Positions 15,568 to 38,275 of a DNA stretch of 43,741 nt are shown here, piece by piece; position 1 is the first letter of the stretch; every line of letters begins with the position of its first letter. Under the pieces are notes generated by a model. The model made no database searches. It had not been told where the DNA came from and worked only from the letters and a program-made list of their open reading frames with translations. A program made the position numbers and the translations under genes. Source of the DNA: Escherichia phage HK578; sequence record NC_019724.1. One strand, written 5' to 3'.

Positions 15568-16308
15568 ATGTTAACGAAGAAGGTTAAAAGCGATATCGCC
15601 GCGCACGTTGCGGCCTGTCTGCCGGAAGAAGCCTGTGGGTTGGTCGTCATGGTAGGCCGCAAACAAGTATTTGTCCCGTGCATGAACGTATTCGAAGACC
15701 CTACCGGCGTGCGCTCGCGAAAGGACGCGTTTACAATCAGCGATATGGCCTGGATGGATGCCGAGGATATGGGCGACGTCGTGCGCGTAGTCCACTCGCA
15801 TCCAGGACAGCGAGAGCTTACCCCCTCACTGGGCGACGTTAACGGATGCAACGGCAGCGGCGTAGTCTGGACCATCACTAACGAATATGGCGACTTTATC
15901 GAGATTGACCCTGAAGACCCTCCGCTGGTGGGGCGTCGATTTGTTCTCGGAATTACGGATTGTTACGGCCTCGTCATGGACTGGCACAAAAAGCAGGGTG
16001 TAAACCTGCCAGACTTCCGCGTGCCGTATAACTGGTGGGAGACAGGCGAAAACCTGTATATGGACAATTGGTACGGCGCGGGCTTCAGGGAGTGTGAGGA
16101 AAATACGCCGGGGGCGATGGTCATAATGCAAATCAGCGCGCCGGTGCCTAACCATGCCGGGATATTCCTTCCGGGCAACCAACTACTACACCATATCTAC
16201 GGCAGTCTGTCGAGCGTAGTCCCCTTCCGGGCAGGATTTTTCCGCGACAATGTGGTTAAATGGGTACGTCATAAAGACCTACCAGGGGATATCACAGAAT
16301 GGCAATGA
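15568..16308 (+). CDS. tail assembly protein K-like (MPN/JAMM + NlpC/P60)
   Basis: JAMM motif VVHSHPGQ...SLGD and downstream Cys/His pair (DCYGLV ... HAGIF) consistent with lambda K-type proteins. Confidence 0.8.
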   Translation: MLTKKVKSDIAAHVAACLPEEACGLVVMVGRKQVFVPCMNVFEDPTGVRSRKDAFTISDMAWMDAEDMGDVVRVVHSHPGQRELTPSLGDVNGCNGSGVVWTITNEYGDFIEIDPEDPPLVGRRFVLGITDCYGLVMDWHKKQGVNLPDFRVPYNWWETGENLYMDNWYGAGFRECEENTPGAMVIMQISAPVPNHAGIFLPGNQLLHHIYGSLSSVVPFRAGFFRDNVVKWVRHKDLPGDITEWQ

Positions 16309-16916
16309 CCACGTTTAAATTGTACGGCGTCTTAGGGCGTCGTTTTGGTAAAGTGCATAAGCTGGACTGCTTCACACCGGGCGAAGGCATCACAGGCCTG
16401 TGCGTGAAGCTGCCAGGGTTACAAGACTTTTTAATGTCGGCCCACCTGGAAAATATTATGTTCAAGGTGCGCAAGGGCAATCACACAATGACCGGATACG
16501 ACGAGTTGGGAGAGTTCCACGGCGACCGCGTAGTGACCATCGCACCGGTTATGACCGGCGCAAAACGCGGACTAGGCCAATTACTGGCGGGAGTAGCCAT
16601 CGTGGTGGCGTCGTTCTACACCGGCGGGCTTGCTACTGCCGCTTTTGGTGCTTCCGCCGCGACCGCTGCCGCGATTGGTACGGCGACGTTCTCGTTCGGG
16701 ATGTCGATGGCGCTGGGTGGCGTTATGCAATTGCTGTCGCCACAGCCGAAAGGATTGCAGACACGGCAGGATGTGGACAACAAGGCGTCTTATGCGTTCG
16801 GCGGACCGGTAAACACAACCGCGCAAGGTACGGCACTTGGTGTATTATGGGGCGAGCGTGAGATCGGCGGCGCTATTATTTCCGCCGGAATCGTAACAGA
16901 GGATTTGAACGAATGA
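16299..16916 (+). CDS. tail assembly protein I-like
   Basis: 205 aa with Gly/Ala-rich hydrophobic C-terminal half; between K-like and J-like genes. Confidence 0.6.
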   Translation: MAMTTFKLYGVLGRRFGKVHKLDCFTPGEGITGLCVKLPGLQDFLMSAHLENIMFKVRKGNHTMTGYDELGEFHGDRVVTIAPVMTGAKRGLGQLLAGVAIVVASFYTGGLATAAFGASAATAAAIGTATFSFGMSMALGGVMQLLSPQPKGLQTRQDVDNKASYAFGGPVNTTAQGTALGVLWGEREIGGAIISAGIVTEDLNE

Positions 16917-29489: not shown

Positions 29490-31781
29490 TTACTTCCTGT
29501 AGCGATACATAACATCGCCCTCTGCGGCAAGCGGGAAGCCTTTCGCCCAAATAGGCAGGTCGCACATCAGCGCGCACAACTCCTCGGTTGTGTAGTCGTC
29601 AGTATCCGGCACTTCGGTGATCAATTCATCGTGTACGGACAGTACGATCTCATACCCCGCAGCTTCAACACCCGGCATGGACCATGCGAGGATATCGCGG
29701 CACAGCGCCTGCACGATGTTTTCCGTCAGTTTGCCGCCGTAGGTGTACTGGAATCCCCACTGGCGCGTCGTCTGATTCTCACCCTGATATTTAATGCGGG
29801 TGCTGGTGCGCTTCTTGCCGGTATCTTCGTCGATCTCGGTCGTCACTGACAGCGCAATGCCTGGATAACTCATAATACGCCCCGACGGCAACTCAATTTT
29901 CAACCACCACCCCGCGGCGTTCGGGTCGTCGCGCTCCTCGTCGAAGGTTGGGTCGTGCTTCGCCTTCGTGCGCACAATCTTGAGCGCTTTTCTACCGTCC
30001 GGGCGAACGTTCGCGCCAGCCCAGTATGCTTTGCCCGGATTGCGGATTGCACACAACACCGCGTCCTCAAGCTCGGCCCAAAATGCTACCGTCTTCGGGT
30101 GCGACTCACGCCACATACGTTTGATCGCATCACACGTCAGCCATACGTTTTTCGGCAGTATGTAAGTTGGGCGCTCGTCCTTCTTGCCAGGCTTCGGCGG
30201 GCGCTTCGCTTCGTTAATGCGGGCATATTCATAACCCCGTTTCGCCGCCGCCCAAATGTGATCGGGGAATGTGCCCTTCATCACTTCAGCCATCGCGTAA
30301 AGGTCAAGGCCCAGGTTTTTAGCGAACTGCAAGAACGCGGCAACGCCACCTCCATAGCCCAACCCCAATTCGCACGCCTTACCAATCTGGCGCAAGTCTT
30401 TGCGGTTGGCTTTAATGTATTCCGGGTCGAGGCCGAACATCTTACCGGCAGTTTCACAATAGATATCGCGTCCGGCCTTAAACACCATTAGCGCGGTTTT
30501 CTCGCCAGCGATCCAGGCGAGGCCACGCCCTTCCACGTTGGAGTAGTCCGCTACGACAAACTTCTTACCCTTCGCCGGAATAATGCACCCGCGAACAGTC
30601 GAGGCCGTTAGCTTCGATATGTCATACGCCCAGTGCGCTGTCCCGCGTAACAGGGAGTTGATGCCGTTGGTGAGCATGTGCGACCGCACCCAAAACGCTA
30701 CGTCGCTCTCGCCTTCACGGCGTTTAATCTTCCCTTCGTGGTCGTCGCTATACTCGCCGCGTGCCAGGTTTTGAGGCTGAAAGCCTTTACCGGCCCAGCG
30801 TAGCGTGCGCTTTGCGCCGCCATACTGGAGACACCCACGGCGGCGACCATCGGCGGATAGACCATTCACAAGCGGATTGTACTTAGTCGATGCCGTTGAT
30901 GACGCACCGAGGCGCATCTCGATAAGCACTTTGCCTTCGTCGGGGAAGTCTGGGTCTTCAAGCAGGTCGTTAAGCGTGGATTTCTGTGCGTTGTGGATTG
31001 TGAACGCAGGCGCGAGGTCGCGCAGCGCGGGCAAGAAGTCATTGCCGGTTAGCTTACCCCCGAAGCGCTCCCAGGCTTCTTCCTTCAATTCTTCCTTATG
31101 CGCTTGCACCGCTTTGATCGCGGCGTTCGCCAGGTCAACGTCCACGTAGAAGCCGCGGTCATTGATCAACTGGTCAATAAGCAGGATTTCGTCTTCCTTC
31201 GGCGTGTTGCCCCAGTCCGGTATGCGCCAATAGACTTCCCTCATAGCGATGATATCCAACGCGGCATAGCGCAGGAATTTGGCCCATTCTTCAGGGTGAG
31301 TCTCGCGGGTGTAGCGGCGGATTTTGTAGGTCTTAGGGGTAGGCTTACAGAATCGTTTGATCAGCGCCTTGCCAGCCTTATCCTTCGCGTGATCTGCGTC
31401 AACGCCCAGCACCTGGCACTGCATATCGAGACTACCCGGCAACGCGTGTCGAAAGGCCATAATCATGGTATCTTCGATCTGGCACACTGGCAGGTCAATG
31501 CCCCACTTCTCGCGAATGACCAGGCGGTCAAACAGGAGGCCGTTAGCCATCACGATTTTTGCTTTCTTGCGGGATACCCGGCGGAGCGCCTTGCGCAGTT
31601 CACGCGGCATTGTGGGGGACTCGGTGCAATCCCAGGTCTGTACGCGGCCCTCGTCGATGGCATAGGTGCAGATCATAATCTCGGTTGTCGGGTGCTCTGC
31701 GTAGGCGTATGCGCCCACTTTCTTCAGATCCACCCCGCTAAATGTCTCGGTATCGAGAAACAGGCGTTCGAAGTCTTTCAT
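29490..31781 (-). CDS. DNA polymerase, family A, with 3'-5' exonuclease domain
   Basis: 763 aa; Exo motif FLDTETFS; motif A-like DYSNVEGRGLAW, motif B-like RQIGKACELGLGYGGG, motif C VLSVHDELI. Confidence 0.9.
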   Translation of the reverse strand: MKDFERLFLDTETFSGVDLKKVGAYAYAEHPTTEIMICTYAIDEGRVQTWDCTESPTMPRELRKALRRVSRKKAKIVMANGLLFDRLVIREKWGIDLPVCQIEDTMIMAFRHALPGSLDMQCQVLGVDADHAKDKAGKALIKRFCKPTPKTYKIRRYTRETHPEEWAKFLRYAALDIIAMREVYWRIPDWGNTPKEDEILLIDQLINDRGFYVDVDLANAAIKAVQAHKEELKEEAWERFGGKLTGNDFLPALRDLAPAFTIHNAQKSTLNDLLEDPDFPDEGKVLIEMRLGASSTASTKYNPLVNGLSADGRRRGCLQYGGAKRTLRWAGKGFQPQNLARGEYSDDHEGKIKRREGESDVAFWVRSHMLTNGINSLLRGTAHWAYDISKLTASTVRGCIIPAKGKKFVVADYSNVEGRGLAWIAGEKTALMVFKAGRDIYCETAGKMFGLDPEYIKANRKDLRQIGKACELGLGYGGGVAAFLQFAKNLGLDLYAMAEVMKGTFPDHIWAAAKRGYEYARINEAKRPPKPGKKDERPTYILPKNVWLTCDAIKRMWRESHPKTVAFWAELEDAVLCAIRNPGKAYWAGANVRPDGRKALKIVRTKAKHDPTFDEERDDPNAAGWWLKIELPSGRIMSYPGIALSVTTEIDEDTGKKRTSTRIKYQGENQTTRQWGFQYTYGGKLTENIVQALCRDILAWSMPGVEAAGYEIVLSVHDELITEVPDTDDYTTEELCALMCDLPIWAKGFPLAAEGDVMYRYRK

Positions 31782-31948
31782 TGCTTAATCCTCACTACGG
31801 CGTCGGTGCTGCCGATCATGGAGAAGATACCGTCGGAAAGGGTTATCTCCTCGCCGTTGTTGCGAATCTCGGTAACGATGAAATACTCGCCCAGCGTTTT
31901 GGACCATACTCGCATTCCGACTTTTACTTCGCTGGCTTTAATACGCAT
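31778..31948 (-). CDS. small hypothetical protein (not in ORF track)
   Basis: 56 codons (MRIKASEVKVGMRVWSKTLGEYFIVTEIRNNGEEITLSDGIFSMIGSTDAVVRIKQ), SD AGGACA, stop overlaps polymerase start (ATGA). Confidence 0.4.
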   Translation of the reverse strand: MRIKASEVKVGMRVWSKTLGEYFIVTEIRNNGEEITLSDGIFSMIGSTDAVVRIKQ

Positions 31949-31964
31949 TTTTCATTGTCCTATT

Positions 31965-31988
31965 AAAAAGCCCGCATTAAGCGGGCTT
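31965..31988 (-). terminator. intrinsic terminator / attenuator between SSB-like gene and polymerase block
   Basis: minus strand AAGCCCGC-ttaat-GCGGGCTT followed by TTTTT. Confidence 0.5.
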
Positions 31989-32006
31989 GAATAGTGGGCT
32001 TCGCCC

Positions 32007-32729
32007 TTAACGGCGGCGACGTTTACGTGGTGCTTCGTCTTCGTCGTCTTCGTCCTCATCCTCATCGTCGCGCGGCTTACGACGTTTACGAGGTTTTTCA
32101 TCTTCGTCATCATCGCGGCGCTTGGACTTTTTGGACTTGCGCGGGCTTTCATCTTCGTCATCATCGCCCAGGTCTTCGTCGGAGCAAGAAGACCCGCCAC
32201 CGCCGAAGGCTTCACCGTCATCACGGAAGCGTAAACCCAGCAAGCCAGCACCGAGTCCCTTGCCGTTGGTATTGTTCCACGCCCAAATATCCAAGGACAC
32301 GTTGCAATAACAACCGGAGTAGATCTCCTGGCCTTCGATCTCGTCGCCTTCTACGGTCAGACCTTGTTCCGTCTGCTTCTCGCCGAGTGACGTTTGAATG
32401 ACCGGCTGTTTGAACGATTTGGCGTTGATGTACAACATGCCTTCGAATTCTTCGGTTACTTCGTCGCGCTCGTCACCGTCGCGAACTGCGCATTCCTTAG
32501 AATCCTGGGCGTAGTGGCGGTCCATCCACTTATCAGCATTCTTCTCGGATTTCAGCTTGTCGGTGAGCACTGCGCGCGCTGCCGCTTCCACTTTGTCCAC
32601 CTGCGGGTCTTCTTTATCAAGAAGAATCACTGCGCGGTATGCCGGTTTTTGTCCATCCTGTTTAGGGGTATCACGTTCCCAAATTTTAAGGAAACATACG
32701 CGCACATTTTTCAGGTTGACTTTAGCCAT
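32007..32729 (-). CDS. ssDNA-binding protein-like (DUF2815-type)
   Basis: ATG 32729 (MAKVNLKNVRVCF...) with SD GAGGAA; family assignment from memory of the N-terminal pattern and co-occurrence with exonuclease and PolA; highly charged C-terminal tail. Confidence 0.5.
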   Translation of the reverse strand: MAKVNLKNVRVCFLKIWERDTPKQDGQKPAYRAVILLDKEDPQVDKVEAAARAVLTDKLKSEKNADKWMDRHYAQDSKECAVRDGDERDEVTEEFEGMLYINAKSFKQPVIQTSLGEKQTEQGLTVEGDEIEGQEIYSGCYCNVSLDIWAWNNTNGKGLGAGLLGLRFRDDGEAFGGGGSSCSDEDLGDDDEDESPRKSKKSKRRDDDEDEKPRKRRKPRDDEDEDEDDEDEAPRKRRRR

Positions 32730-32793
32730 TTTCCAATTCCTCATTTTACATGTATCGGGGTTATTGTAAGCCACCCCGTTCGGCTTGGTTGCT

Positions 32794-32822
32794 AATCTAC
32801 TTGGTTGCGCCTAAGCGGTCAA
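32794..32822 (-). promoter_or_regulatory. sigma70-like internal promoter
   Basis: minus strand TTGACC-17 nt-TAGATT; direct repeats TTGGTTGC at 32785-32792 and 32801-32808. Confidence 0.35.
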
Positions 32823-32833
32823 GCACTTTTTTA

Positions 32834-34261
32834 TTAATTTTTTAAATCCTCGTCAGTAGCTTCAGACCACGCGGGGCGCGGGTCGTCGATAGGTGCTAAC
32901 ACCGGTTTAGCAGGTGCGCGCGTGATTTTATCACACAGCTTCGCCCACACTTTCGGTTTTTCGTCCTTCAGCACCTTCTCGGCATCTGTTGGGCTGAGCA
33001 ATGTTTCTTTGTACATCACATCGCGCTTGATCCGGGCCTTCGTGAATATTTCAATCACTTCGCTCTCGTCCGCCCACTTCCGGATCCCTTCCTTGCCTGC
33101 AACCATCTTGAGGCCCAGCGATTCGCCATCCCCAGCCATTACCGCTTTGAATACCGCGGACTCGATAGCTTTGATGTGCTGGCGCATTGCGTCCAGACCT
33201 TCATAAGCCTTGCGCAGTTCCGCCGCGCTCATAGCACCGGGGGCCGCTTCTTTCTTGCCCCGTTTAGCACGTCGTGCCGCCTTGCGGGCTTCGCGGGCCA
33301 TATTGAGGCCGTGGTTGGCGCATTCTTCCGCTGTCGCAATACTCTCGTCGTCGCCCAGGTCTTCGTCGGTTGCCGTTGGTGGTGTCATCGTATCGATTGC
33401 AGCCTTCGCCCTGGCGCTACACTGGTCCGCAAATCTGCACCACTGGCACGCATCAACGCTGGGGCGGAAGTCGGCACGGGTAAGCCCCTTCTTGCCGCGG
33501 GTGTACGCATCGAGAGCGGCGATAGCACGCTTGGACGCAAACTTCGCGAATATCTCCAGCGCTTCTACCGAAATATCCCACTCCGACGCCCCGCCGCAAT
33601 ACGGCTGGAAGATAACCAGGCGCACGGTCGTAATGTCGTACATAGTTTGCAGCTTGCGTAGCAGGCCCAGCGCGTACAACATAAGCTGTTTGTTTTCTTT
33701 TGCCTCGACCTTATGCCGCCCGGTCTTCAGGTCGCCAACAATCAGCATGTACGTGCCGTCGGTCTTTTTCATTACCATGGCCATATCGGCAGTACCGAAC
33801 GTTTTAATCCTGTTGCCGTCGCTCTCGAATCCTGAATGAAGGACGCGGGTCAGATCGGCGCGCATCTCAAGCTGAACAAACTCCGCCACTTCGAGGAGCG
33901 GTCGCCAGTGGTCGATGTACGCGTCGCACTGTTTCACCATGTCGTCGTTGACCAGTACGCCGCCTTTCGGTGCTTTCGGGTGGGCCTTTACTGGCCCCTT
34001 GCCTTCGTTCTCGACGTAGCACCCTTTATACGTCTTCGCGGTTATCAGCTTCTCCCCGGCGATAATGCGGTTTAGCACCACTTCAGATACGGTGTGCATA
34101 CTCGTACCGTTAATCGCCGCTTGCCCGGATTCGTTAGGGATATCTTTTTCCACCACCAGGGCGGCGGGGCAACCCATCCATTTTTTAGCACCGGACGGGC
34201 CGAGTAATGAGTGTTCCGTGTTGCTACCGGATTGCGTTTTACGTTTTGGTTTAATCGCCAT
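32834..34261 (-). CDS. RecB/Cas4-like exonuclease (DUF2800-type PD-(D/E)xK nuclease)
   Basis: 475 aa; nuclease motifs GTADMAMV, IVGDLKTG, QLMLYALGL and C-terminal Cys cluster CQWCRFADQC (Fe-S-type); adjacent to SSB-like and PolA genes. Confidence 0.7.
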   Translation of the reverse strand: MAIKPKRKTQSGSNTEHSLLGPSGAKKWMGCPAALVVEKDIPNESGQAAINGTSMHTVSEVVLNRIIAGEKLITAKTYKGCYVENEGKGPVKAHPKAPKGGVLVNDDMVKQCDAYIDHWRPLLEVAEFVQLEMRADLTRVLHSGFESDGNRIKTFGTADMAMVMKKTDGTYMLIVGDLKTGRHKVEAKENKQLMLYALGLLRKLQTMYDITTVRLVIFQPYCGGASEWDISVEALEIFAKFASKRAIAALDAYTRGKKGLTRADFRPSVDACQWCRFADQCSARAKAAIDTMTPPTATDEDLGDDESIATAEECANHGLNMAREARKAARRAKRGKKEAAPGAMSAAELRKAYEGLDAMRQHIKAIESAVFKAVMAGDGESLGLKMVAGKEGIRKWADESEVIEIFTKARIKRDVMYKETLLSPTDAEKVLKDEKPKVWAKLCDKITRAPAKPVLAPIDDPRPAWSEATDEDLKN

Positions 34262-34739: not shown

Positions 34740-35171
34740 TTAGTCTTCCAGTTCGAAATAAGTTTCGACGATTTCTTTCAGGTCTTTGTGGAAGTCTTCC
34801 ACGTCGTCGTCTTCCAGTTTAGCGATTGATTTGATCTCGAACGCTTCCAGCAGGTCGTCAAATTCGTCGTTCGCGTCGTCGTCATCGCCCCCGGCGATAA
34901 TCGCGGCATACTGTTTGATCTCGTCGCGCATCTCTGCCAGCGGATCGGCATCTTTCTTACCTTTGCCTTTCGCCGTGGCTTTTTTACCTTTCGCCGGTTT
35001 TTCGTCTTCGGCTTCTCCATCGTCGTCATCTTCTACGACTTCTTTTTTGGCCTTAGACGGCTTCTTGTCTTCCTGCTTATCAACGGCAGCGCCAACGGTT
35101 TCATAATGCTTAGCGATGGTTTCCAGTGCTACTACGCCGCGAGTAATCAGGTTTACGATTTGTTCAAACAT
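34740..35171 (-). CDS. acidic hypothetical protein (first gene of early leftward operon)
   Basis: 143 aa from ATG 35171 (MFEQIVNLITRG...) with SD GGAGA; upstream part of track ORF to 35399 is treated as 5'UTR. Confidence 0.5.
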   Translation of the reverse strand: MFEQIVNLITRGVVALETIAKHYETVGAAVDKQEDKKPSKAKKEVVEDDDDGEAEDEKPAKGKKATAKGKGKKDADPLAEMRDEIKQYAAIIAGGDDDDANDEFDDLLEAFEIKSIAKLEDDDVEDFHKDLKEIVETYFELED

Positions 35172-35367
35172 GGTGTATCTCCAATTGGTTAAGTTTAGGT
35201 GTCGGCAGTAAACTTCGTCGGTGGCCTTAACATATTGCCAGGTTACGCGTTCTCCCTTTCGGGTAGTGGACCTGGTTATATAATCACGGTTGGGAATCCT
35301 GACACTTCGATCCGGCCCCTGCGTTGCCCCTCTCCAGTTTGCGTCCTGCATCCTGTCGACGAGGTGA

Positions 35368-35396
35368 ATATTAGATTGGTTGCAGAAGGGAGTCAA
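35368..35396 (-). promoter_or_regulatory. early leftward sigma70-like promoter
   Basis: minus strand TTGACT-17 nt-TAATAT; ATTGGTTGCA (35375-35384) lies in the spacer. Confidence 0.5.
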
Positions 35397-35407
35397 CAAC
35401 TAATTTC

Positions 35408-36013: not shown

Positions 36014-38275
36014 ATGAAAAATTACTTAATCGAGTTCGGCACCGTCGGCGGTAAGTACGGCAAGCGTGTTAAAAACCATTCTATGACGGAAGCCGAGTTT
36101 ATGGAATACGTCGCGGATACAGTGGAGCTGTCCGGCGTTACCATTACCGGCGACGAGACTAAGAAAGAATACGATGCGGTGAAGGGTAAGGCGGAAGGCA
36201 TTGTCGCCACCACTAAAGGCCGCGGTCGTCGCGCCACGGAAGTGGGTGTGCGTTCGGTTTTGTTCTACGATCTGGACCGCACGGACAACCGAACCCTGGG
36301 TCGTGTTAAGCGGGCATTTCGTAAATCCGGCCTGTCCCACGTCTACTACTCCACTACTGGCGACCGCCATCCGCTGAAGGGCGGCACACGTTGCGCACGT
36401 TTCCTGGTACTAACCAATAAACCGGTCGACGTTACCGATTTGGGGCGTGCTCAGTTCGCACTGTTACACGACCTCGGACTGGAAGACGTACCGTTTGACG
36501 ATTGCACAAAAAACGTCAACAACCTGCAGTTCCTCCCGCATTCCGGATCTACCGTGTCTTGCCACCACGGCAAACGTGCCAATGTGCGGCGTCTGCTCCG
36601 CCTGGCTGACAAGCTGGGGGTGGAGAAAGAGGAAGTACGCCGCGAGCTTACCCAGGGCGACGACGCAGTGGCGGACGGTATTCTGGACTGGTGCTTCCAG
36701 GCAGGATTCGAGGAGTTATCCTCCGGTCGCGGTTATGAAGTGCCTTGCCCGAACGAACATCTGCACAGCGGCGAAGGATCGACGGCCATCATGGTCAAGG
36801 ATGGCGAGATCCGTTTCAAGTGTATGCACACCGGCAACGAGTGTTGCTCGGAGCTAAATAGACACCAGCACCTGGCGCTACGTCTTATCGGGATACCGGA
36901 CCACCTGAACGTCGAGCCGCACAACATGTCCCGTAAGCAAATCGCCGCCATCCTCCCAGGGCTGGACGACGAGGAAGTCGAATCCTTATATGAACATATT
37001 GTTGATGCGGTTGGCGACGGCGAAGAATACGGCGTATGCACCGATGCGGATCTGGATAACGAGCCGGTTGCGCTGTTCAGTAAGCACGACCCGATCATCG
37101 AGGGGTTGATTAACTTTAAATCGACCTGGTATATGGCGGGCGAGTCGAATATCGGTAAGTCGTTCTATGTGCTGGGGCAGATGGGCGCGGTTGCCGCCGG
37201 TATCCCGTTTGGCGGTGCGAAGGTCGTCCAGTCGCATTGCTTCTATTTCGATGCGGAAGGCGGCGAAGCCTCCAACCAGCGTAAGGAGGCATTGCAGATC
37301 AAATACGAGCACGACCTGGACAAGCTGCACATTATCGACCTGCAATCACGCGGCTGGGATATCACCAGCAAGTCTGGCTTGCGCGAAGTTATCAGCTTTA
37401 TCAATCGCACAGCTAACGGGGAGCCGGTTGGCCTGGTGGCATTCGACTCACTCAACCAGACTGTTGCGCTGCGGTCCGCCGATGCTAAACCATTTGACGA
37501 GAACAACGCCAGCGATATGGGTGAAGTGGTCAAAGCGTTAAAAGCCATCGCGGAAAACACAGGCGGCAGTGCGGGCGTCATCCACCACCCGGCGAAAGGT
37601 GCAAACGGCAGCAGAACCCCCCGCGGGTCCGGTGCGCTTCATGGCGCTGTCGATTCTGCGTTCTTCCTGGAACAGCCGGACGACAACCAGCCGGGGCAAC
37701 TTAACCTTTATCACGAAAAATCACGTAACGGCATCAAGCAAGCGCCTCGTGGCTTCGTCCTGCTCAAGTGCAAGGTGAAGGTAGATCTCCGCAAGTCAGA
37801 AGCGTTCGCGTCGCACCAGTCCACCAGCACCGGGCCAGACTTCGGCGACGTTGTTGCCGGTTGGGACGTCAAACCAATTGCGTCCACGCCACGCGACGAG
37901 ACTCTGTACCTCGTGCCGGTCGCCCTGGCGCCGTTCGCCATCGAACAGGCGAAGGCCGCGGGCAAAGCTGCAGTTAAGGAAGAAAACGCCGCCGGTCCGC
38001 GCAACGAAAAAGAGAAAGTGCTTTATGCTGCCCTGGAAAAACTGATGGAAGATAACCCGGACCATACTGGATTTAGTAAATCGGCAATTGTCCGCCAGGC
38101 TGGACTCGCGAAGGGTGGCACTTCGACGAAGGCAATCGACGATATGGTCGAGCGCGGCGTGATTGGTTTCTACACAGATCCGCACACCGGGGCCATCTAT
38201 GGGTCGTCGAATTTAGTCATCAAATCGGATAGCCCCATAACGCTTTCGGCGACCGATGATGACCTGAAAGATTAA
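36014..38275 (+). CDS. primase-helicase (Prim-Pol domain + zinc-binding region + RecA-like ATPase)
   Basis: 753 aa; N-terminal VLFYDLD and TTGDRH (archaeo-eukaryotic primase-like), Cys/His cluster CPNEHLHSG...CMHTGNEC, Walker A GESNIGKS and Walker B LVAFDSL; C-terminal ~100 aa possible DNA-binding domain. Confidence 0.8.
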   Translation: MKNYLIEFGTVGGKYGKRVKNHSMTEAEFMEYVADTVELSGVTITGDETKKEYDAVKGKAEGIVATTKGRGRRATEVGVRSVLFYDLDRTDNRTLGRVKRAFRKSGLSHVYYSTTGDRHPLKGGTRCARFLVLTNKPVDVTDLGRAQFALLHDLGLEDVPFDDCTKNVNNLQFLPHSGSTVSCHHGKRANVRRLLRLADKLGVEKEEVRRELTQGDDAVADGILDWCFQAGFEELSSGRGYEVPCPNEHLHSGEGSTAIMVKDGEIRFKCMHTGNECCSELNRHQHLALRLIGIPDHLNVEPHNMSRKQIAAILPGLDDEEVESLYEHIVDAVGDGEEYGVCTDADLDNEPVALFSKHDPIIEGLINFKSTWYMAGESNIGKSFYVLGQMGAVAAGIPFGGAKVVQSHCFYFDAEGGEASNQRKEALQIKYEHDLDKLHIIDLQSRGWDITSKSGLREVISFINRTANGEPVGLVAFDSLNQTVALRSADAKPFDENNASDMGEVVKALKAIAENTGGSAGVIHHPAKGANGSRTPRGSGALHGAVDSAFFLEQPDDNQPGQLNLYHEKSRNGIKQAPRGFVLLKCKVKVDLRKSEAFASHQSTSTGPDFGDVVAGWDVKPIASTPRDETLYLVPVALAPFAIEQAKAAGKAAVKEENAAGPRNEKEKVLYAALEKLMEDNPDHTGFSKSAIVRQAGLAKGGTSTKAIDDMVERGVIGFYTDPHTGAIYGSSNLVIKSDSPITLSATDDDLKD

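Follow-up and report, generated by a model that had tools for sequence, protein, structure and literature searches.

The SSB (single-stranded DNA-binding protein) encoded by ORF6 of Enterobacter/Hafnia phage Enc34 and its solved relatives 4klk and 4jg2 possess short (about 20-30 aa), purely acidic C-terminal tails, and the tails of the four structurally solved T7-type SSBs are acidic throughout (PMC5686142). The Enc34 tails insert into neighboring molecules in the crystal and deletion of the tail alters DNA specificity (PMC5686142). T7 gp2.5, a monomer/dimer-type SSB with an oligonucleotide/oligosaccharide-binding (OB) fold that anneals DNA, likewise has a disordered tail that docks replisome partners; this tail is wholly acidic and needs a terminal Phe. 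It also regulates binding (PMC10359462). Here we describe the SSB of Escherichia phage HK578, a Dhillonvirus-type siphophage of E. coli whose genome sequence (NC_019724.1; 43,741 nucleotides) constitutes the window under study. The protein belongs to the same family as Enc34 SSB, 4klk and 4jg2 by hidden Markov model, sequence and predicted fold, and shares with Enc34 ORF6 and other DUF2815 proteins the DNA-contact residues (Lys, aromatic, Asn), an FGG hinge with an acidic stretch after it, and a nuclease-SSB-polymerase gene neighborhood. However, its tail adds three units of alternating acidic and basic stripes and ends RRRR. Unlike in gp2.5, there is no terminal aromatic or acidic residue, the docking-type motif lies within the chain, and the tail has basic stripes in addition.

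Looser parallels exist in other systems. T4 gp32 pairs a basic, flexible K/R/S/T segment that serves cooperativity with an acidic segment for partner binding and autoinhibition, but it has an unrelated fold and carries these segments at opposite ends, once each and unrepeated. The window sequence PRKSKKSKRR resembles the 'LAST' motif of gp32, (Lys/Arg)3(Ser/Thr)2 or KRKST, in composition; fold and position in the protein differ. The basic KRKST N-domain confers cooperativity on gp32 (PMC12893549). Among phage SSBs it is the closest functional parallel to a flexible basic segment; recent data suggest that this cooperativity is not simply electrostatic (PMC12893549). In E. coli SSB a disordered linker separates the OB fold from the partner-binding peptide and drives non-nearest-neighbor cooperativity and phase separation (PMC7584906; 10.1101/2022.01.17.476650). 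Striped tails of lineages that retain a tip (…DDEIPF) match this linker in position, but the E. coli linker is Gly/Pro/Gln-rich, nearly uncharged and part of a tetramer, whereas that of the window is about 80% charged and the tip is gone in its clade. Eukaryotic charge-block regions of the Ki-67 type, in which charge blockiness drives condensation (PMC9106583), show the same alternating blocks, high segregation and predicted disorder, for which physics predicts self-coacervation and compaction. They have no homology to the window tail and function in another cellular context, and the tail is much shorter. The direct orthologs are the SSBs of phages SECphi4 and SECphi18, which have near-identical OB domains and the same striped tail with three and four units, respectively. 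The published SECphi SSB model covers residues 1-186 and leaves the tail unanalyzed.

The window encodes a predicted T7/Enc34-type SSB

The SSB gene (Table 1) is a minus-strand open reading frame (ORF) of 240 codons that stops with TAA at 32007-32009. The first-pass annotation, which was based solely on the letters and their ORFs, had called the product SSB-like, and profile searches bore this out. Pfam PF10991 (Enc34_ssDNA-bd) matched with 109.3 bits against a cut-off of 26 (E = 2e-31) in an alignment spanning aa 3-193 and profile positions 2-172 of 176, and phrog_112 ('Gp2.5-like ssDNA binding and annealing protein') matched with E = 2e-56. Matches in the PDB comprised the DUF2815 structures 4klk and 4jg2 together with Enc34 ORF6 (5odj); sequence identity to T7 gp2.5 was about 10-14%. 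Homologs begin at MAKVNLKN and thus the GTG upstream at 32774 is not required as the start.

An AlphaFold2 (AF2) model built on 58 homologs had a per-residue confidence (pLDDT) > 90 over aa 1-175 of the OB domain. Foldseek searches with this model retrieved 4klk (6.5e-13), Enc34 SSB (5odl; 1.1e-12) and T7 gp2.5 (1je5; 1.6e-06), all with a probability of 1.0. In an alignment to 5odj, residues K39, W149 and N153 coincided with Lys46, Trp150 (the aromatic stack) and Asn154, which are the named ssDNA contacts of Enc34 SSB (PMC5686142). Together the profile matches and the model identify the protein as a T7/Enc34-type SSB of a Dhillonvirus, and ssDNA binding is predicted from its family, fold and contact residues. 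The SECphi4 ortholog triggers Retron-Eco8 in vivo, and its binding of retron msdDNA is stated in a later paper. An FGG motif is near-invariant across the family alignment. Over aa 178-240 the pLDDT was 42-54 and DSSP assigned no secondary structure. The tail proper (aa 184-240) is accordingly predicted to be disordered, in common with classical SSB tails, but it is not purely acidic as those are.

The tail is a block polyampholyte built from a directional repeat

The last 57 residues of the SSB read DEDLGDDDEDESPRKSKKSKRRDDDEDEKPRKRRKPRDDEDEDEDDEDEAPRKRRRR and are followed by TAA, in exact agreement with the ~55 residues quoted in the first-pass annotation. The tail contains 20 Lys/Arg residues in three basic blocks and 27 acidic residues (17 Asp and 10 Glu), so that the fraction of charged residues is 0.82 and the net charge is -7; the OB part has a net charge of -8. 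Charge segregation yielded a kappa of 0.56, a value matched by 0/2000 composition-preserving shuffles. The alternating charge blocks and poly-Arg end described in the first-pass annotation are thus real. With its high charged fraction and a segregation of opposite charges beyond that set by composition, the tail is a block polyampholyte.

The underlying DNA is repetitive, as also had been observed. The 21-mer TTTCATCTTCGTCATCATCGC is present in exactly two plus-strand copies at 32096-32116 and 32147-32167 (expected 0), which sit inside a three-copy, diverged 36-nt direct repeat. Tandem Repeats Finder reported only short 9- and 15-nt sub-repeats; the three-unit structure derives from a repeat search and protein alignment. 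At the protein level the tail consists of three diverged copies of the directional unit (D/E)n-x-P-R/K-(K/R/S)n. The stripes are more than alternating charge, a feature that the first-pass annotation missed. When aligned with the SSB genes of other Dhillonviruses, the second unit of the window corresponds to unit 3 of the four-unit form, and the DDDDEDDKPRKSKKSKRR unit is absent from the window and from two other loci (L010 and L011). The C-terminus, …APRKRRRR, has neither an acidic/hydrophobic tip of the …DDDIPF, …DGDF or …DDLL type nor a terminal aromatic residue.

Two other structural interpretations were discarded. An ER/K-type single alpha-helix is ruled out by the Pro in every unit, the preponderance of Asp over Glu (17 vs 10) and the lack of a helix in the AF2 model. 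The resemblance of PRKRRRR to a nuclear localization signal was set aside because the sequence comes from a 44-kb E. coli siphophage.

The reading frame and stop codon of the tail are genuine

Repetitive DNA that is open in several frames raises the question of whether the striped frame is the one translated. The SSB frame and its ending are kept in >100 homologs. Among 16 aligned Dhillonvirus SSB genes, codon variants in the tail comprised 49 synonymous and 26 non-synonymous changes, compared to 105 and 21 in the OB domain, and all tail indels were in-frame and roughly unit-sized. The synonymous excess and the in-frame indels show purifying selection on the SSB reading frame, which disposes of the alternative open frames and of a sequencing error. 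Other frames indeed are open across the repeat (31952..32251, minus strand; 31994..32401, plus strand), and two database proteins (P0005 and P0010) are translated in an alternative frame. However, GAN/CGN/AAR repeats are expected to leave other frames open, and the TAA is followed directly by an intrinsic-terminator-like hairpin, AAGCCCGC-UUAAU-GCGGGCUU plus a U-run, with a folding energy of -24.6 kcal/mol (z = -4.2). A simple terminator scan missed this hairpin, which falls just under the T-run rule of that scan, but the fold supports a terminator. The chance that the true stop lies upstream or that another frame or strand is coding is therefore negligible, and the stop, which the first-pass annotation had allowed might be displaced by a sequencing error, is genuine.

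Phage vB_EcoS-22664B1 (MZ234008.1, CDS 286-1095) has a 2-bp insertion just after DDDLGD that frameshifts all of the stripes. Its SSB is annotated with an M/T/K-rich tail in the alternative frame, and the canonical striped frame is intact downstream through APRKRRRR and the stop codon. Most likely the shift stems from an error in sequencing or assembly, and so it cannot be taken to show that the phage can do without the stripes; if real, it would be a natural stripe knock-out. Programmed frameshifting, which was considered in view of P0005 and P0010, was rejected: the vB_EcoS-22664B1 change is a 2-bp insertion and the shift in P0010 begins at a run of Gly codons, and these cases are taken as errors or recent mutations.

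Striped tails are rare in the family and standard in the clade

The OB domain alone (aa 1-178) was searched against 1.84 billion cluster representatives without a word index, which avoids a bias towards similar tails. The survey produced 1861 matches of which the best 150 were classified. Purely acidic tails with a median length of 24 aa, mostly ending F, A, I, L or V (…DDDIPF, …DDLL), accounted for 128 of these 150, and tails with both acidic and basic blocks for 18 (median 48 aa); three tails were of other types and one was partial. These counts uphold the earlier generalization that SSB tails usually are purely acidic. The description of the tail as unusual holds for the family as a whole but not for its own clade, where stripes are standard: among the ten closest matches all eight full-length representatives (8/8) had mixed tails, and the remaining mixed tails in the best 150 were scattered among acid-only relatives.

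In Dhillonvirus, Guernseyvirinae, Eiauvirus and further lineages a striped tail is the rule, across hundreds of sequenced phages. The 16 Dhillonvirus genes specify two, three or four units in proteins of 224-263 aa; the first and last units are always kept while copy number varies, and 15/16 proteins end APRKRRRR (last unit EAPRKRRRR). Jerseyvirus Ent3 and Kagunavirus K1ind2 each have one unit, ending …DDLEDDEDETPRRERRRNR and …DDLEDDEEDEAPRRERRRR, respectively. Cornellvirus VSiP has two units and an acidic end, YEDDEE, and Eiauvirus eiAU has 3-4 units and ends …RDDD. No full-length clade member that lacks the tail in its native frame was found among the homologs examined, and thus the tail-less relatives that might have spoken against the first-pass annotation did not emerge. 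Classical acidic tails were found in Casjensviridae Aeromonas phages, APSE-1 and PHS21. The metagenomic protein P0104 combines basic blocks with a …DDEIPF tip although its closest cultured relatives are acid-only phages, which suggests multiple gains: basic blocks seem, from these sequences, to have been acquired more than once. In striped lineages with an acidic/hydrophobic tip (…DDEIPF, …DDDVA, …GRDDDIA) the stripes occupy the position of a linker, with the proximal motif on one side and the tip on the other. Of the striped tails seen, that of the Loktanella roseophage pCB2051-A (NC_020853.1, CDS 892-1920; 342 aa) is the most extreme: it has about 10 tandem (D/E)5-7-PRGRGRGR units, is RG-repeat-like and has an acidic end (…GRDDDIA).

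A set of 112 homolog tails was collected in a word-indexed search, which enriches for similar tails, with OB identities down to 30%. These tails contain 1-9 basic blocks with a median net charge of -9, and the acid/base pattern is deeply conserved despite OB-domain identities of 30-50%. Of 207 acid-to-basic junctions, 93% have a Pro two residues (+2) past the final acidic one, but a Pro is near only 10% of basic-to-acid junctions. The consensus unit is (D/E)n-[R/K/A]-P-R-R/K-R/K…(S)-R, Arg outnumbers Lys by about 3:1 (1569 vs 501), and the tail ends are roughly half basic and half acidic. No description of striped or basic SSB tails was found in the literature searched, and such tails may have been noted elsewhere. 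The striped tail is a real, regular and conserved, apparently uncharacterized variant of a well-known protein element.

The tail opens with a peptide shared among replication proteins

The tail begins with S-D-E-D-L-G-D-D-D; the acidic motif found family-wide immediately behind the OB domain reads SDEDLGDDDEDE here. Thus, the conserved partner-type motif is at the start of the tail and not at the poly-Arg end, a location that the first-pass annotation overlooked. The pattern [ST][DE][DE]DL occurs four times in the 61 inferred proteins of the window compared to 0.098 expected, and 0/2000 shuffles reached four. All four sites are in replication proteins: one each in the SSB and the replicative helicase-primase, and two in the DUF2800 nuclease. 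In addition, the 19-nt sequence CCGACGAAGACCTGGGCGA, which encodes (S/T)DEDLGD, is identical at 32164-32182 in the SSB gene and 33351-33369 in the nuclease gene, both on the minus strand (expected 0); the identity may stem from gene conversion or from a shared origin of the motif. No such motif is present in the family-A polymerase, which has a basic end, …YRYRK. The ending …TEDLNE of a tail assembly protein (16299..16916) is a weaker match that was judged coincidental.

The peptide is conserved or co-varies in eiAU, Ent3, VSiP, K1ind2, APSE-1, an Aeromonas phage and three metagenomic phages. In eiAU the helicase-primase ends …SATNSDLED and the nuclease …VKDDDLVD, and the SSB proximal motif is TATDDDLSDDDD; the equivalent sequences in Ent3 are …KTTEGDLE, …VTEEDL and SASVDDLEDDED. 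In phages with a D-D/E-F-x-D type of SSB motif, the C-terminus of the nuclease varies in step (APSE-1 and two metagenomic phages); in the Aeromonas phage it is instead a motif of the LWD(D/E)E type that is common to the SSB and nuclease. In one metagenomic relative (L029, 3139-3327), a 62-aa protein between SSB and PolA ends …TATDEDLE, as does the nuclease there. It occupies the place of the 56-aa ORF of the window, which is without the motif.

In T7 an acidic tail is common to gp2.5 and the helicase-primase, a parallel to the SDEDL, TDDDL and TDEDL sequences of the window, and the acidic tail of T7 gp4 binds T7 polymerase, the same partner as the gp2.5 tail. The gp2.5 tail contacts both T7 polymerase and helicase (PMC10359462). 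By analogy, S/T-D-D/E-D-L is suggested to be a common docking peptide on the SSB, helicase-primase and nuclease. As the same peptide ends the helicase-primase and the nuclease, a docking or DNA-mimic function is most likely, and its reader could be the polymerase or the OB groove of the SSB itself. The shared S/T-D-E-D-L peptide provides a testable map of the wiring of the DUF2800-DUF2815-PolA replication module.

Possible functions of the striped tail

The preceding sections document the anatomy of the tail, its predicted disorder and its conservation, the selection acting on its frame, the variation in copy number and the motif shared with other proteins; function is what we infer from here on. 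With somewhat less than even confidence, we favor an electrostatic-linker model in which the tail is a selected, disordered block polyampholyte on a T7/Enc34-type SSB. The proximal acidic motif immediately after the OB domain would be the counterpart of the classical acidic SSB tail, and the distal 1-4 directional units (three here) would replace the usual short acidic stretch with its hydrophobic tip. In a block polyampholyte with a kappa of about 0.56, opposite blocks are expected to pair within and between chains. Pairing of basic with acidic stripes within one molecule might gate the docking motif by masking and unmasking it; pairing of opposite stripes between SSBs lined up on ssDNA could generate cooperativity or local condensation; and Arg/Lys stripes may touch the DNA backbone and so promote strand annealing. 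Through their charge the stripes would fill the role that falls to the Gly/Pro/Gln-rich linker in E. coli SSB and to the basic N-domain in T4 gp32. Variation from two to four units within one genus, with the first and last units kept, fits a dosage-dependent or multivalent (fuzzy) function better than a fixed structure.

Several observations count against the electrostatic-linker model. The SSBs of SECphi4 and SECphi18 trigger Retron-Eco8, but the functional data for the SECphi4 ortholog map elsewhere than the tail: escape mutations are in the OB domain (T56P) or in the promoter upstream of the SSB gene, and the tail of T7 SSB is dispensable as a Retron-Eco8 trigger. For the same reasons a link between the tail and Retron-Eco8 sensing was dropped as unsupported. 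Phages with two, three or four units all are viable, and hence any fine tuning must be tolerant. The 112-homolog set was collected with a word index that favors similar tails and its repeat units are not independent observations, and the AF2 model gave no hint of a docked conformation. Finally, the strong conservation of the x-P-R junction is more in keeping with a specific recognition motif than with electrostatics alone.

This last point is the main argument for a different interpretation, which is possible if rather doubtful: that the stripes are copies of a short linear motif, (D/E)-x-P-R-[KR]-[KR], read by a defined partner (phage polymerase, helicase-primase, nuclease or a host factor), with repetition providing avidity and the poly-Arg end replacing the acidic/hydrophobic tip. 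The placement of Pro at +2 in 93% of acid-to-basic junctions, the asymmetric consensus …(D/E)-[RKA]-P-R-R-R-(S)-R-(D/E)…, the invariance of the last unit EAPRKRRRR in 15/16 Dhillonvirus genes, the presence of an E-P-R junction even in the distant roseophage protein, and the loss in this clade of the hydrophobic tip, which is required for partner binding in other SSBs, all agree with such a motif. It is harder to reconcile with a unit number that is free to vary from two to four within a genus, with a basic part that is compositionally loose across lineages (RKSKKSKRR, RKRRKPR, RGRGRGR, RRSRRSR) or with the acidic tip at the end of about half of the mixed tails, and no partner was identifiable from the sequence. 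The basic stripes instead might be mainly a DNA-contact or charge-neutralizing device that boosts annealing, self-association being secondary, with the SSB acting as annealing partner of the neighboring DUF2800 exonuclease during recombination-dependent replication. In other proteins, segments that are Arg-rich or of the RGG type promote annealing, and the tails are richer in Arg than Lys (1569 vs 501) and in the roseophage are RG-repeat-like; the PHROGs label reads 'Gp2.5-like ssDNA binding and ssDNA annealing protein' and the SSB gene always adjoins a PD-(D/E)XK exonuclease. Removal of the acidic tail from Enc34 SSB also unmasks dsDNA binding (PMC5686142). This proposal is judged unlikely: net tail charge is negative (-7 here, median -9), and most family members with the same exonuclease neighbor have purely acidic tails.

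It is similarly improbable that the stripes are largely neutral low-complexity DNA that grows and shrinks by slippage or unequal recombination between GA-rich repeats, with only the proximal acidic motif being of consequence. The DNA is repetitive, unit-sized indels are common among near-identical phages, and the 2-bp insertion in vB_EcoS-22664B1 frameshifts the stripes but keeps DDDLGD. Nevertheless, alternation, the Pro junction and negative net charge persist with different codons at 30-50% OB identity; synonymous changes exceed non-synonymous ones by about 2:1 in the tail; every indel is in-frame in the 16 Dhillonvirus genes, a set to which vB_EcoS-22664B1 does not belong; no full-length clade member examined lacks the tail in its native frame; and the frame downstream of the vB_EcoS-22664B1 insertion is perfectly intact, as would be expected after a sequencing error or if the change were very recent.

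A more far-reaching extension, which is put forward as speculation with little likelihood, is that the striped SSB is a self-coacervating scaffold in which the tails of neighboring molecules zip together on ssDNA through opposite stripes to build a replication-recombination compartment. The helicase-primase, DUF2800 nuclease and small accessory proteins would be concentrated there via the common TDEDL peptide, and the material properties would depend on the number of stripes (from 1 to about 10 in the various lineages). If true, phages would have evolved, more than once, a purely electrostatic means of condensing SSB.

Whichever role applies, the textbook rule of an acidic tail with a hydrophobic tip is broken in a regular manner, by repeats, in Dhillonvirus, Jerseyvirus, Kagunavirus, Cornellvirus and Eiauvirus, a large, well-sampled group of enterobacterial phages that includes members of the BASEL collection and the SECphi phages used in work on defense systems. 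If the stripes control cooperativity, annealing or condensation, these phages supply a natural graded series (1, 2, 3, 4 to about 10 units) for tests of the effect of charge patterning on a replisome hub, and such control would bear on the interpretation of work that uses expression of these SSBs as a trigger for Retron-Eco8 and similar systems.

Genome context

The 3.5 kb around the SSB gene are 92-94% identical to Henu5_1, KarlBarth (Bas17), YD-2008.s and about 150 other genomes. The SSB gene is flanked upstream by the nuclease and downstream by the 56-aa ORF and the polymerase (Table 1).

Table 1. Features of the SSB locus and related sites in the window
Feature	Position	Strand	Basis or remark
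SSB gene (240 aa + TAA), T7/Enc34-type (DUF2815) predicted ssDNA-binding/annealing protein	32007..32729	-	ORF, Pfam PF10991, phrog_112, PDB matches
OB-fold DNA-binding domain, aa 1-177 (predicted)	32199..32729	-	AF2 pLDDT, Foldseek
Gly/Ser-rich hinge GGGSSC, aa 178-183	32181..32198	-	pLDDT < 50 from residue 178
Proximal acidic motif S-D-E-D-L of SSB, aa 183-187	32169..32183	-	Motif scan
Stripe unit 1, DEDLGDDDEDES-PRKSKKSKRR, aa 184-205	32115..32180	-	
Stripe unit 2, DDDEDEK-PRKRRKPR, aa 206-220	32070..32114	-	Alignment of 16 Dhillonvirus SSB genes
Stripe unit 3, DDEDEDEDDEDEA-PRKRRRR, aa 221-240	32010..32069	-	
Intrinsic-terminator-like hairpin + U-run, directly 3' of SSB stop	31965..31988	-	RNA fold
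Sigma-70-like promoter TTGACC-17-TAGATT, upstream of SSB gene	32794..32822	-	Consensus scan
DUF2800/PD-(D/E)XK exonuclease, upstream of SSB	32834..34261		
T-D-E-D-L at extreme C-terminus (…EATDEDLKN) of DUF2800 nuclease	32843..32857	-	
Internal T-D-E-D-L(GDDES) in DUF2800 nuclease, loop TATDEDLGDDES	33356..33370	-	
Replicative helicase-primase gene	36014..38275		
T-D-D-D-L at C-terminus (…SATDDDLKD) of helicase-primase	38252..38266	+	
56-aa ORF (hypothetical), downstream of SSB	31778..31948	-	phrog_10102; kept in about 150 Dhillonvirus genomes
Family-A DNA polymerase, downstream of SSB	29490..31781		

The 56-aa ORF corresponds to the 'SECphi4 56aa protein of unknown function', which carries an E21fs frameshift in a related escaper phage (Table S2, 10.1101/2022.08.27.505566). 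The SECphi4 intergenic region equivalent to 31949-32006 is mutated in escapers of the Borvo system (ATTAA->TTAAT, +TT and G->T; Table S2, 10.1101/2022.08.27.505566). The ATTAA->TTAAT change is read as an inversion of the hairpin loop. The mutations suggest that Borvo sensing is influenced by read-through into the 56-aa gene and polymerase operon.

A 219-aa protein in the same early/replication region (34740-35399, minus strand; phrog_3127) contains a mixed-charge stretch with similar junctions, DKQEDKKPSKAKKEVVEDDDDGEAEDEKPAKGKKATAKGK. KarlBarth (L001, 3300-3609) and most other Dhillonviruses have an extra hypothetical gene of ~80 aa, bas17_0045, between the nuclease and SSB genes. The corresponding gap in the window (32730-32833) is only a ~100-nt spacer with the promoter, and the missing counterpart of bas17_0045 accounts for most of the ~280-nt length difference in the megablast matches.

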